DNA from: Paraspadella gotoi
Taxonomy: Eukaryota; Animalia; Chaetognatha
DNA length: 6,819 nt
Assembly (NCBI GenBank): GCA_051294375.1
Contig: JBJCIZ010000811.1
Location: forward strand, 1 to 6,819
Direction: 5' to 3'
A model generated the notes under the pieces. That model did no database searches. It was not told where the DNA came from and saw nothing but the letters and a program-made list of their open reading frames with translations. The position numbers were made by a program, and so were the translations under genes. Shown piece after piece: positions 1,640-6,819 of this stretch; positions within the stretch are counted from its first letter, which is position 1, and every line of letters begins with the position of its first letter.

Positions 1640-2221
1640 GGAGTCAGAATCGGCGAAAATCTTAAAAGGCGAGAATGTTGAAAAAAGGGTGGAATTTTGA
1701 TGGGTTTCCTAAGATTTCTCCACAATGTGAGGTCCGATTAAAGCGAAACTTGTTTATCAATATTCCCTCATTCCACATCTATCGATATAAAATATAAGAA
1801 AAAAGTCACTGGCTTCTTTTTCTATAGCGGCTTCCTATTAGATTACTAGCTCCTTCCGAAAAAGAGCAAAGATCTCTTTGTAGCTTCCATTGGAATCCCC
1901 CGCGAGTTCGCCATAATTATGACTTTTAAGGATTGTGTGCCATGGAAACTACGCCAAGACTCCGCACCCCTCTCACAAAGAATTCGCAACCAAAATTTCT
2001 AATTTATATAAAAATGAAACATGTTTACCAAAAGATATTTTAAAAATTTGAATTCTGAAGCAGAATTCGTAACTGAGAATTAAAAACTCGTATATAGGAG
2101 ACAAAAAAATAGACTCGTACATACGAGACAAAAATAAGCACTTCTCAGTTAAGATCGTGGATTGTTCGCCTTGTCGAGTGACGTTCAAGTCCTAACCATA
2201 AGATCCGTCCGAATCTTAAGA
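1640..2221 (-). other. Putative structured 3' UTR of the ORF1/ORF2 transcript
   Basis: Dense inverted repeats downstream of the ORF2 stop: 2199-2218, 2070-2079/2142-2151, 2050-2068, and 1648-1653/1734-1739 enclosing 1657-1664/1710-1717. CpG appears more often here than in the AT-rich 1090-1560 flank (judged by eye). The distal boundary is uncertain. Confidence 0.5.
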
Positions 2222-3907
2222 TTAGCTAGGAGCAGGTGTGGGCCTTTCTAATGAGGCTGACATGGGATAAGCTGCTGCTTGTTGATCTGAAAAGATCACC
2301 TTTTCCCATCCCAGGAAAGCCGCCATTATGCCATAGATTACAAAAAACGGTATGCCGAATACGATTCCTATAGTGACAAGTTGTATGCTTTGCTTTCGTT
2401 TAGGATACATGCTAACGCTTACCATACCTGAAAATATCCCCAAAACCAAAATCATAGTTAACCACCTTGGAAATGAGCACATCTGAAAACAAAGTCCTAA
2501 AGAGCCAGATATTAAAAATAAAACGTTAATTGCCAAGTTAGCGAGCGCTCCAAAAATTGGTCCAAAAACAACTCCATCTCTGTGAGTCGTCGAGGCAATA
2601 AATGGGGCATAAGCCATAGCGATTGTCGTTTTACTAACAAATGTAAAGAAAACTAAACATGCTAAAAAGATCCCAACTACACACTCTATTAACCCAAATT
2701 GGATCATATGAAAAACAAGGTAGAGAAGCAAATGCGCCGCAAAAATGGGCCTATGCCACATTCCAACCATGAACGCGACAACATTCGACATCCATCCCTC
2801 AGTAGCTGTTCCAAGAAGACGTTCAAATATTTCGATACCTTTTGCACCGTGGAAAACCGCTGCAACCTCGCTCTGCTTTCGATTAAGCAGGACTCTAGTT
2901 GTAGGCTCAAACGTTGCAATCAGTACAACAAGAAGCAAACCCCCAAATCGGTTGACGGTACTCCACGCAGCCGTCCACCAATCCAGTGTGTGATATGGAT
3001 AAACCCACGTCCACATCTCCGTCATCCATGAAAGTGAAAATTCATATGTCTTCTCACCAGAGGAAAACCATGATGTAGGTTCGTCCTGTTTAACGTAATA
3101 ATTGTACGCCTCCTCCTTTTTGTTCAAATAATAATCTTCAGGAGGGTCAAAGTAATACCAGTGGCAAGGCCAACCGGTTACTTTCCCCGTAAATCTTATC
3201 ATTCTATCTAGAATATAATTAGCATTAAAACTTAACCCCGCTGTTCCAACAGAAATACTAACCAAAACTGATATTAGTAAACAAATCCTAATAATCTCCG
3301 TAACAGAGTGCTGTGAAAACCTTGGTATAAATAATGTGAATACTCCCACCATAAAACCAAATATGCATATAATTGCTGTACTAAATGTCAAAAATTCAAA
3401 TTTTAAACTTAAGCCAATTCCTACTACTCCAAAAAATATCAAGAGAAATTTAAGCAATGGTCCTATAAAATCCGGAATTCTACAAAATAATCCTATTATT
3501 CTAATAAACCCTGAACCAACACAAACATATCCTGACCATGAAAATATGGACAATAAACCTCCTAAACCTATTCTCGCGTACCAAGGTAGAAAGTAAAGTA
3601 GCCAAAACAGTGTCATGCCTCCAAGGCCATAGACACATATAAAGACTACCCCAGGTTTTGCCCCTGTCTCATCGCATATCCATCTAACAATGTTTGAAAT
3701 TCTAACCAAATCTTCTTCTAATCCCTGTGGAAACCTAGCTAATTGATCCTGAACCATATAGAGTATAGTTTCAACTGTATCGTTACCCAGATCCTCCGTA
3801 TCTAAAATCACACTCTCACCAAAAGCCAAAGCCTCAAGTTCGAATTGCGACAATAGATCAGAGAGATTTTCCCTCTCCGTCTGGGTGCGATCGGAGAGGG
3901 AAATCAG
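2222..3907 (-). CDS. ORF2: multi-pass membrane protein (~10-13 TM), probably made as the -1 frameshift extension of ORF1 (561 aa after the shift); jingmenvirus VP3-like architecture
   Basis: Uninterrupted frame from CTG at 3907 (LISLSDRTQTERENLSDL-LSQFELE...) to TAA at 2224-2222. The ORF track start at 3853 is TTG; the first ATG is at 3757. There are many hydrophobic ~20-aa segments and an aromatic-rich hydrophilic loop (GWPCHWYYFDPPEDYY...). The VP3 likeness is inferred from size, topology and frameshift context, not from alignment. Confidence 0.85.
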   Translation of the reverse strand: MISLSDRTQTERENLSDLLSQFELEALAFGESVILDTEDLGNDTVETILYMVQDQLARFPQGLEEDLVRISNIVRWICDETGAKPGVVFICVYGLGGMTLFWLLYFLPWYARIGLGGLLSIFSWSGYVCVGSGFIRIIGLFCRIPDFIGPLLKFLLIFFGVVGIGLSLKFEFLTFSTAIICIFGFMVGVFTLFIPRFSQHSVTEIIRICLLISVLVSISVGTAGLSFNANYILDRMIRFTGKVTGWPCHWYYFDPPEDYYLNKKEEAYNYYVKQDEPTSWFSSGEKTYEFSLSWMTEMWTWVYPYHTLDWWTAAWSTVNRFGGLLLVVLIATFEPTTRVLLNRKQSEVAAVFHGAKGIEIFERLLGTATEGWMSNVVAFMVGMWHRPIFAAHLLLYLVFHMIQFGLIECVVGIFLACLVFFTFVSKTTIAMAYAPFIASTTHRDGVVFGPIFGALANLAINVLFLISGSLGLCFQMCSFPRWLTMILVLGIFSGMVSVSMYPKRKQSIQLVTIGIVFGIPFFVIYGIMAAFLGWEKVIFSDQQAAAYPMSASLERPTPAPS

Positions 3908-3913
3908 TTTTCC
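3868..3913 (-). promoter_or_regulatory. -1 programmed ribosomal frameshift signal: slippery heptamer G_GAA_AAC (3913-3907) plus stimulatory stem-loop (3903-3868)
   Basis: Minus strand: TCG GAA AAC TGA TTTCCCTCTCCG-ATCGCACCCAGA-CGGAGAGGGAAA. The heptamer is in the correct ORF1 phase, the 0-frame stop follows directly, and the GC core of a 12-bp perfect stem starts 6 nt after the heptamer. The -1 frame is ORF2. Confidence 0.85.
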
Positions 3914-4941
3914 GATAACGCCTCACGCCTAACCTCTATATATGCACTATGTTCTTGTCCTCCATGACGAATAAGTCCTTTCCTCAAAGCCAGGAACCAC
4001 GCATTTTGACCTCGGACCATCTCCTTTGGACAGCATGCGCTTGAAGGCAATAGAACTAGCTCCTTCTCCAAGTAATCCCGATTCCAATGTAGGTTACGAG
4101 AATGTAACTCGGAGAAGCGTCTACACTGTGATGGTGAGTTGACTGATTTCGTTCTATCAACCTTTTGACCATCAACAGAAAAGACACGTTGGAATCCGGA
4201 TATTGGAAAATAGGCGTAATGCCTCAATGTGGTAATGGGTAGCACGTCCACTTCTTTCTCACCAGCCACACAGGCGTATCCATACATATGTCCGCCTCGT
4301 AGTTTCAAGTGAGGAGATTCCAAAGTTTCACGAAAAACATTCAACTTAAAGAACCCCGAATAAATCAAGTAGTGTTTCAACACGCCTATGAACCAACCAT
4401 GGGTCTCCCCAAATTGGTAGCCCATTCCCACAAGGTAAGATTTTACGTCCTCCAACTTAAATGCCTCCCTAATCAACTCCTTGGCTAGATCTGGATTTTT
4501 CTTCGAAACGGCTGTCTGCAACTTTGAAACAATTGATGAAATCTTATTTAAATAATCAGAGTCCTCTCCCTCTGACTTATGCTTATGTTCCTTTTTTAAA
4601 AAAGTTTCAAACTTCTTGGCACCATCGTCATGAACTTCATCACAAAGTTCAATTACTGCTTCCGTTTTGTTTTCCATATCCAGAATTTCTTCAAACTTAT
4701 CCGAACTCTCTTCAATGTCCAGTTTATTTATACCATTAATCAAAATATCTGTTTCCTCATTTTCTTTACAAGTCTCTAATTCTTTACTAAAGGCCTTTGC
4801 ATACGACTGATTCACACCTTGGACAAAACCTAAGTACTCACCATCTGGTTTTTCTGATTTAACCTCGAATTCTTTAACTGCTATAAAAAAGTTCCCATGA
4901 ACTGTCAATATTAAAAGCAAAAACGTCACTTGTTTAATCAT
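3904..4941 (-). CDS. ORF1: 345-aa signal-peptide-bearing secreted/luminal protein; jingmenvirus VP2-like position
   Basis: ATG at 4941 in an AAAATG context (the track start at 4953 is GTG). The N-terminus MIKQVTFLLLILTVHG/NFF fits a signal peptide. It has an acidic/Lys-rich N-terminal half, N-glycosylation sequons NQS and NKT, 6 Cys, no further TM segment and no introns. Confidence 0.85.
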   Translation of the reverse strand: MIKQVTFLLLILTVHGNFFIAVKEFEVKSEKPDGEYLGFVQGVNQSYAKAFSKELETCKENEETDILINGINKLDIEESSDKFEEILDMENKTEAVIELCDEVHDDGAKKFETFLKKEHKHKSEGEDSDYLNKISSIVSKLQTAVSKKNPDLAKELIREAFKLEDVKSYLVGMGYQFGETHGWFIGVLKHYLIYSGFFKLNVFRETLESPHLKLRGGHMYGYACVAGEKEVDVLPITTLRHYAYFPISGFQRVFSVDGQKVDRTKSVNSPSQCRRFSELHSRNLHWNRDYLEKELVLLPSSACCPKEMVRGQNAWFLALRKGLIRHGGQEHSAYIEVRREALSEN

Positions 4942-5009
4942 TTTAAAAAACACCTTTGAAAAACAATGTTGTTATGTATTTATCAAGAAGAATTTGTTCG
5001 TTTACCGGA

Positions 5010-5034
5010 ACTGTCCTATTAACAAACCTTTATA
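5010..5034 (-). promoter_or_regulatory. Possible TATA box (TATAAA, 5034-5029) and CAGT initiator-like motif (5013-5010) upstream of ORF1
   Basis: Minus strand TATAAAGGTTTGTTAATAGGACAGTT lies about 70-90 nt before the ATG. The spacing (~22 nt) is shorter than typical and the region is AT-rich, so support is weak. Confidence 0.25.
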
Positions 5035-5423
5035 ATAGAAAAATGTAACAATCTAAAATTTCATTCAAGATTAAAATTTTTAAGATGAGGAAATAAAATT
5101 TATTTTAATAAGTAAAAAAAATATTTGGAAGTCAAAAAATATCATAGTCGTTAACTGATTATTGTCAACTATATATTTTGTTAATAGAGATTATAATTTT
5201 TTGACCGTTATTATGAAAATAGTTTAGCTTTATAGCGACGAGTTTTCATTTCATACAATCAATATCAATCTCATTCATTTTCAATAATATGCAAAAAATT
5301 AAGGTTTTCAAACCTCATTTTGAACTAGATGAAACAAAAGACTTCAGTCTTATTTCAATTGAAAAAAATAGAAATTTAATTGATGCTTCATCACACTCTA
5401 ATAAAACAATTTTATTTTTAACA

Positions 5424-5476
5424 CGCCATTTTTTTTTAATACAAATCCCAAATTTATTCCGAGATTTCCGTGGATT
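5424..5476 (+). repeat. Right copy of the ~55-bp imperfect direct repeat (partner at 253-309)
   Basis: Shares CGCCATTT, a T-tract, AATACAAA and CCCAAATT-N5-CGAGATTT with 253-309. Confidence 0.8.
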
Positions 5477-5542
5477 TTTATTTTTTCCTTCTAAAAACTT
5501 GTATTATTTTTATTATTCTCTTTATATTTCTCTCTCAATCAA

Positions 5543-5575
5543 CTCTCTCTCTCTCTCTCTCTCTCTCCTCTCTCT
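5543..5575. repeat. (CT)n microsatellite
   Basis: About 16 CT units with one interruption. Confidence 0.95.
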
Positions 5576-5593
5576 TAATTTAATCATCACGTC

Positions 5594-5832
5594 ATGAATG
5601 ACTAGCATCGCATCAATGAATGACTATCATCGCATGCAATGAATGACATCATCGCATGCAATGAATGATTATCATCGATCAATGAAGGACTATCATCGCA
5701 TCAATGAATGACTATCATCGCATCCATCATTTGGTTATCATCGCATCAATCCTTCGGTTATCATCGCATCACATATTTGGTTATCATTGCATCAATATTT
5801 GGTTATCATCGCATCAATATTTGGTTATCATC
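5594..5832. repeat. ~22-bp minisatellite, ~11 units, with constant core TATCATCGCATCA
   Basis: About 6 units of ATGAATGAC-TATCATCGCATCA followed by about 5 units of ATATTTGGT-TATCATCGCATCA. Confidence 0.92.
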
Positions 5833-6819
5833 AAAAGCAGGCTCGATCCCTATTGCTTTTAGATTTTTAGTACTTATTCTTAACCTGTCTTTAACCTCCC
5901 ACTGTCTTTTTCTTATTTTTTTGGAAACCTCTATCTCTCTCCCTCTTTCACGTTTCACACCTTATACTTTGTCAAAAATTTTCACAAATGACTTATTAAT
6001 TTTTTGCGCTAATGAAGACTTACGTCTAAAGTTTAAAAATTTTCCTTTTTAAAATAAAATTGTTGCATAAACAAAACAATATCGGTACATCCAATGTTTT
6101 GCGCCACAGTGACTTTCTTTTTATGAAATTGGTACAACCAATATAAAAATTATCCATTCATTCAATAAATAAGCTATCTTGCCCCTGACTTTGGACAGGC
6201 TTTGGTGGTTTAAGGCCTCCATCACTCTTACAAGATAATTACATAGCAGGTCCCTGCAAGCTTTCAATCAAGACTCTCTGACAGTCCTGTTTATTCACTC
6301 CCAGAGTACCTGGCCTCCCTATCAATGAAGTGGAAAATATTTCAAAGAATGTTTCAATTGTATGAAAAGACCACTCCCTTAAGTATTTGTATATTTATAT
6401 GTGTATTTCCATATGATCACATGATTAGAAAATTATTTAAAAAAAAGTTTTATGGTTGATCACTACTGTGCAAAGTTTCATTACAAACAACCAGACATTA
6501 CAAGAAATATAATGAGTTCGGGGTTCCAGCCTACACTATATGACAGTATGTGTCAACTGACTACACAAGTATGAAACACATGCACAAGAAGCATTTAGTA
6601 ATGACTTACCAGTCTGCCAAGTATTACCTAAAATAACTTTCTTAGCCCGTGTATTTATGGCATGCAATATATTTATAGTATTATCTTTATAAAATAATAA
6701 ATTTTCAAAATAAATTTTCTTTAATTTTTATTAATGTTTTAGATTTTTCGTAAAAAATTAGACCAAAAAATATAAAACATTATCATAAATTTTTTTGTAT
6801 TCAGTGTCAAAATTGGAAA

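Follow-up and report, generated by a model that had tools for sequence, protein, structure and literature searches.

The closest described counterpart of the locus reported here is segment 4 of the jingmenviruses. This segment encodes VP2, a 254-aa protein with a signal peptide, and VP3, a protein of 505-538 aa that is predicted to cross the membrane 11-12 times (PMC6893481); in an insect virus, VP3 has 471 aa and at least 6 predicted membrane spans (PMC9229714). A −1 frameshift is proposed to join VP2 and VP3, and in Guaico Culex virus mass spectrometry has confirmed it (PMC12036656). Structural proteins of the jingmenvirus group share only 18-26% identity in the comparisons reported, and a further study describes jingmenvirus structural segments as being without known homologues (PMC12262179). 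Jingmenvirus sequence has also been found in host DNA. In an earlier genome survey, midges and a water strider were listed as carrying polymerase- and helicase-derived elements, and a 2.6-kb integration derived from segment 4 is described in the tick Ixodes persulcatus (PMC13155725). Separately, the heptamer G_GAA_AAC placed directly before an ORF1 stop is a predicted −1 frameshift site in insect and fungal double-stranded RNA (dsRNA) viruses (PMC3832450, PMC4881467).

The locus compared with these systems lies in a window of 6,819 nt of DNA from the chaetognath Paraspadella gotoi, the window being the whole stretch that was analysed. Two open reading frames on the minus strand, ORF1 and ORF2, are open over 2.7 kb with one break, giving 906 codons without a stray stop. 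The parts of the cassette are as follows.

3904..4941, minus strand: ORF1 of 345 aa with its stop codon, from the ATG at 4941; predicted secreted or lumenal protein, with a putative VP2-like role
4876..4932, minus strand: the sole hydrophobic segment of ORF1, residues 4-22 (Kyte-Doolittle 1.84), predicted signal peptide
3907..3913, minus strand: slippery heptamer G_GAA_AAC, in zero-frame phase and abutting the ORF1 stop
3904..3906, minus strand: ORF1 stop codon TGA, doubling as a 3-nt spacer
3868..3903, minus strand: hairpin with a 12-bp stem and a 12-nt loop, predicted frameshift stimulator
2222..3907, minus strand: ORF2, 561 aa, in the −1 frame, with a putative VP3-like role
2040..2221, minus strand: strongly folded tail 3′ of the ORF2 stop, candidate viral 3′ untranslated region

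The signal peptide of ORF1 was called from hydropathy alone; ORF1 has an acidic, helical N-terminal half and 6 cysteines, and its start codon lies in the context AAAATG. ORF2 has 9-11 hydrophobic segments in two clusters that flank a Trp/Tyr-rich loop, and the count depends on the threshold (8 at 1.8, 9 at 1.6 and 11 at 1.3). Single-sequence structure models of the two ORFs are of low confidence (pLDDT 44 and 33).

The anatomy of the junction between the frames is that of a −1 frameshift signal, both real and strong. A reading made from the sequence alone had described a G_GAA_AAC heptamer followed by the stop and a perfect 12-bp stem with a 12-nt loop, and these elements are present at 3913-3868 on the minus strand, with stem arms at 3903-3892 and 3879-3868 that pair entirely by Watson-Crick pairs. 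That reading had the −1 frame closed just upstream of the heptamer, then open for 561 codons with the first ATG at 3757, and had products of 345 aa and about 906 aa; the frames bear out both statements (345 + 561 = 906). Upstream of the heptamer, the −1 frame is stopped at 3949, 3931 and 3925, so ORF1 and the −1 frame overlap only at 3922-3904. The heptamer falls inside this 19-nt overlap, has the form X_XXY_YYZ and is in the phase of the zero frame. The stem is the longest perfect hairpin across the window when loops of up to 30 nt are considered, and within ORF1 and ORF2 it is the only stem of at least 9 bp. The 51 nt 3′ of the heptamer have a folding energy of −23.5 kcal/mol (z −4.66), a stability equalled by none of 200 shuffles and none of 2000 synonymous-codon null sequences, and of 139 permissive heptamers on the minus strand, none is followed by a more stable fold than the GGAAAAC at 3913-3907. 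Slippery heptamers in phase are found at 9 of 900 codon positions. Stem, fold and phased heptamer form a signal far beyond chance. Over longer stretches the fold stands out less: z is −1.9 for 111 nt, and a scan of 80-nt segments places it 17th of 338. Rfam returned no frameshift element, with three matches below threshold.

The spacing proposed by the sequence-only reading, 5-9 nt between slippery site and structure, needs correction, as the full stem begins after a spacer of 3 nt, the stop codon. Structure at 5-9 nt is nonetheless provided by the core of the stem, which retains 9 bp and −19.6 kcal/mol at a spacer of 6 nt and −16.5 kcal/mol at 7 nt. Stretches that lie 54 and 76 nt downstream could each form 7 bp with the hairpin loop, a possible pseudoknot that is not counted as evidence. 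Two other routes to ORF2 were considered. Stop-codon readthrough is ruled out because the zero frame closes again at 3810. Independent initiation could use the ATG at 3757, which has T at −3 and a weak start context. The −1 shift is the best-supported route to ORF2 expression, with slippage itself deduced from the anatomy, and it was very probably the mode by which the cassette was originally expressed.

Under established rules of −1 frameshifting, a ribosome would reach G_GAA_AAC with the hairpin at its entry channel and the stop codon next, and tandem slippage on the heptamer would take place during a pause at the hairpin and stop. Most ribosomes would then terminate at UGA and release the 345-aa secreted or lumenal protein. 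The slipped fraction would move back by one base, enter ORF2 and make the 906-aa form, in which about ten membrane spans would serve as an anchor.

Parallels with jingmenvirus segment 4 extend over most of the cassette. Segment 4 (VP2-3; VP1-3 in Guaico Culex virus) is likewise about 3 kb with two frames, and likewise has an ORF with a signal peptide, a −1 slippery site, a multi-pass membrane ORF of 470-560 aa and a structured untranslated tail. By hydropathy, the first ORF here carries its predicted signal peptide at the N terminus, as in segment 4, and the second, entered by a −1 shift, has a span count within the range of 6-12 (561 aa versus about 470-540 aa). There are also differences. 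ORF1 is about 90 aa longer than its counterpart, no similarity of sequence or fold to segment 4 was detected, and the locus sits in host DNA. In a published table of frameshift sites, GGAAAAC appears in none of 29 rows of segment-4 type, and 26 of these 29 sites end in UUUU, whereas the heptamer here ends in AAAC. The slippery site here is 1029 nt past the ATG, compared with 757-1010 nt from the segment start in that table. The terminal motif of tick-clade jingmenviruses given in PMC9589506, GCAAGUGC, is absent from the window; one match with a single mismatch lies on the wrong strand inside ORF2, against an expectation of 2.23 such matches. As the match to segment 4 is one of layout, the locus is described here as working like segment 4 and is not filed in the family.

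The other known systems each share part of the arrangement. The Ixodes persulcatus integration is also a near-whole structural segment retained as host DNA; the tick copy is close enough to known tick viruses to have been mislabelled as such, whereas the locus here matches nothing. Fusagraviruses and the insect dsRNA viruses resembling Spissistilus festinus virus 1 have the identical heptamer abutting the ORF1 stop; their sites are predictions, and their −1 frame encodes an RNA polymerase in place of the membrane protein seen here. A third comparison is with host genes derived from retroelements. Some of these use −1 frameshifts, as does PEG10, and they are gag/pol-derived and conserved. Such genes resemble the present locus in having a virus-type −1 signal within a chromosomal gene. 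Unlike them, the locus has no gag/pol domain, its products are predicted to be secretory-pathway proteins, and it is disrupted in some samples.

Searches for relatives of the two proteins were blank. Nothing exceeded the curated cut-offs of Pfam, NCBIfam or PHROGs for either ORF (best E 0.1, 0.1 and 0.049, respectively), and among PDB sequences, ORF1 had two weak matches (E 0.18 and 1.6) and ORF2 none. Homologue searches with ORF1 and ORF2 gave sets of 1563, 7997 and 3078 candidate proteins from which none passed; ORF2 alone was compared with 1.84 billion protein representatives, with no homologue among them, and the ESM Atlas held no usable match for either ORF. Related loci were absent from viral (IMG/VR) contigs and from metagenome contigs, and, for ORF2 alone, from prokaryote genomes and phages. 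Searches against viral folds with the low-confidence models gave no match at E <=0.001, and a wide search of PDB structures gave generic helical matches (Z up to 6.2). Jingmen tick virus VP3 appeared at rank 24 among the best 50 rows with an E value of 0.87, from a low-confidence model; this match is not significant and is not counted as support. In the ORF1 fold search, no row was named as a jingmenvirus protein among the matches listed, many of which are unnamed. A literature search found no paper attributable to the locus, which does not establish the locus as unpublished. Given identities of 18-26% within the jingmenvirus group, a blank search is what would be expected for a remote member.

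The genomic setting and the sequencing runs bear on how such a cassette came to lie in this DNA, and involve four further features.

5047..5100: deep host repeat bounding the element upstream (depth 17699 versus 32.7 in run X2)
5010..5034, minus strand: TATAAA and, 21 nt further on, CAGT, roughly 70-90 nt upstream of the ATG; weak candidate for an RNA polymerase II promoter
4539..4542: insertion at codon 134 of ORF1 in runs X5 and X6, accompanied by a duplication of 4 bases
3128..3175: 48-nt ORF2 stretch that recurs in a second copy, diverged and located elsewhere, in the same samples

The ORF part has 40% GC, compared with 22-31% in the outer flanks, which carry micro- and minisatellites. The repeat at 5047-5100 is up to several hundred times deeper than the ORFs, and a single contig links the two, so the ORFs lie in host DNA; the locus is read as eukaryotic chromosomal DNA. 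At the other end, the tail of about 185 nt from the ORF2 stop has four stem-loop domains and a duplicated 22-mer (repeat D20), and folds more strongly on the coding strand (z −5.11) than on the opposite strand (z −2.91). The region at 1600-2040 still has raised GC (36%), with moderate folding of 1800-2040 on the coding strand (z −2.24), and the 3′ end of the element may extend into it. On the plus strand, a long hairpin at 2200-2300, opposite the end of ORF2, tops the 80-nt scan (z −3.06). Only one of nine TATAAA words on the minus strand has a CAGT partner like that at 5010-5034, and the nearest AATAAA past the ORF2 stop is at 1337, about 900 nt away.

The stretch is present in eight of nine listed runs, from two studies and all marked as probable DNA, and contigs from four of those eight (X1, X2, X5 and X6) were compared over 2100-5100. 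A contig crosses the junction without a gap in all four, two of them from the second study and independent of the likely source; at the level of contigs, as distinct from raw reads, this rules out the assembly indel that the sequence-only reading had named as an alternative. Contigs of X5 and X6 stop at 4542 and resume at 4539 with foreign ends. The insertion site is bridged by none of the five X5 contigs and by none among 8 of the 15 X6 contig records; depth in X5 halves to the right of the site (from 21 to 11), and X1 contigs break nearby too. A 4-base duplication is typical of transposon insertion, and the foreign ends look LTR-like by eye. Single-base differences listed for the second study are at 3063 and 4502, both second codon positions and both changing the amino acid. 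The second copy of ORF2 was found in all four runs, in X2 on a contig of 1042 nt at similar depth. It aligns at 82% or more only over 3128-3175, within the Trp/Tyr-rich loop, with 5 differences in 48 nt in X2, X5 and X6, and X1 shows loose ends at the same places.

We favour, with slightly better than even confidence, a reading in which positions of about 2040-5040 (3 kb) are an endogenous copy of one structural-protein segment from a jingmenvirus-like RNA virus that has so far escaped sampling, the frameshift signal still being intact; the viral origin and the VP2- and VP3-like roles are drawn from layout alone. The layout is a known viral arrangement, which makes a viral relic likelier than a new kind of cellular gene. 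The insertion that interrupts ORF1, seen in two samples from a single study, speaks against the gene being essential, and intact frames together with a disrupted allele suggest a fairly recent capture whose proteins would be of little or no present need to the host. Against a viral origin stands the lack of sequence or fold evidence, together with the low-confidence models, and the TATA-like word and the second diverged copy would fit a resident gene family equally well. Such a family, whether it goes back to a virus segment domesticated long ago or has another origin, in which the −1 shift sets the ratio of secreted to membrane-bound protein, is unlikely; it would account for 906 codons free of stray stops, for a second diverged copy in all four runs, and for the upstream TATAAA and CAGT and the AAAATG start context, but is weakened by the interruption of ORF1 in X5 and X6, by two listed single-base differences that both change the amino acid, by the distance of about 900 nt to the first AATAAA and by the blank searches for relatives. 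Slightly less probable still is a frameshifting cassette from another source, be it a DNA virus, an accessory gene of a retroelement or an RNA virus unrelated to jingmenviruses. With jingmenvirus homology not shown, such a source would fit, and a TATA box with CAGT, which typifies early promoters of insect DNA viruses, is counted in its favour. The exact heptamer-stop word does occur in dsRNA viruses (PMC3832450, PMC4881467), but the −1 frame of those viruses encodes a polymerase and not a membrane protein. The window holds no further viral or retroelement gene, and no IMG/VR contig matches the locus. It is very improbable that a germline indel of one base split a once-continuous gene, or that the assembly is in error: broken genes are common and this locus tolerates an insertion in some samples, but the junction is identical in four of four runs from two studies, and the change of frame coincides exactly with the slippery heptamer, the ORF1 stop and the strongest hairpin.

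A rival to the frameshift itself is a candidate intron that spans the junction.

3881..3933, minus strand: candidate GT-AG intron, 53 nt, phase 0 at both ends

Here the sequence-only reading was incomplete: its proposal of frameshifting stands as the best-supported route to ORF2, but it missed this in-frame candidate and did not take up the origin of the cassette. As both ends are in phase 0, splicing would likewise join the ORFs in frame. In an ordinary gene of this kind, removal of 3933-3881 would take out the stop and join ORF1 (336 codons) to ORF2 (from its codon 10) in a protein of about 888 aa, with the heptamer and hairpin incidental, or with the hairpin regulating intron retention. In eukaryotes, introns far outnumber frameshifts, and the candidate has GT-AG ends, a branch-like CTGAT word, a pyrimidine run ahead of its CAG and a restored frame. 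By rough weight tables, its donor ranks 9 of 166 and its acceptor 2 of 179. An equally good GT-AG pair spans 23 of 753 other codon positions, and one that also has the branch word spans none of the 753 (these positions overlap and are not independent). On the other side, an intron would leave unexplained both the 12-bp stem (0 of 2000 nulls) and the in-phase heptamer (9 of 900 positions). Its GC content is 55%, against a flank median of 28% and with only 2 of 3180 flank windows as high, composition being a typical and not a strictly defining property. The pyrimidine run is paired in the stem with a probability >0.9, and five other short GT-AG pairs within the open frames score higher. An ordinary spliced gene is an unlikely explanation. 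Frameshifting and splicing could coexist in a nuclear transcript, and one reading combines them: a domesticated, multi-copy host family, derived from segmented RNA viruses of a lineage that current databases lack and placed under a host promoter, whose 36-nt hairpin both drives the −1 shift and hides the in-frame intron and so fixes how much secreted protein is made relative to an 11-span membrane protein. That combination is improbable.

If the locus is an endogenous copy of a segment from a jingmenvirus-like virus, it would be the fossil, nearly whole and with its coding frames intact, of a lineage of segmented RNA viruses beyond the reach of the searches that were run, and would offer a probe for that lineage and for the origin of jingmenvirus structural segments. 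Being short, the cassette also lends itself to direct testing of G_GAA_AAC followed by a stop, an arrangement that the cited papers only predict. If the host still uses the locus, a switch between secreted and membrane forms would join a short list of chromosomal −1 frameshift genes.

Several minor observations concern the outer parts of the window. A weak match to the Rfam type-P5 twister ribozyme lies at 6184-6226 on the minus strand (score 25.8 bits, below the cut-off of 37.6; E 0.035), where folding is not notable (z −0.15). The element is flanked at a distance by a host repeat in two related copies, at 240-320 and 5405-5480. A minisatellite at 5583-5818, with 10.6 copies of a 22-nt unit, adjoins a CT microsatellite at 5543-5575. 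The run of 28 T at 421-448, which corresponds to a minus-strand poly(A) tail 1.8 kb past the ORF2 stop, is probably the end of an unrelated retroposon.
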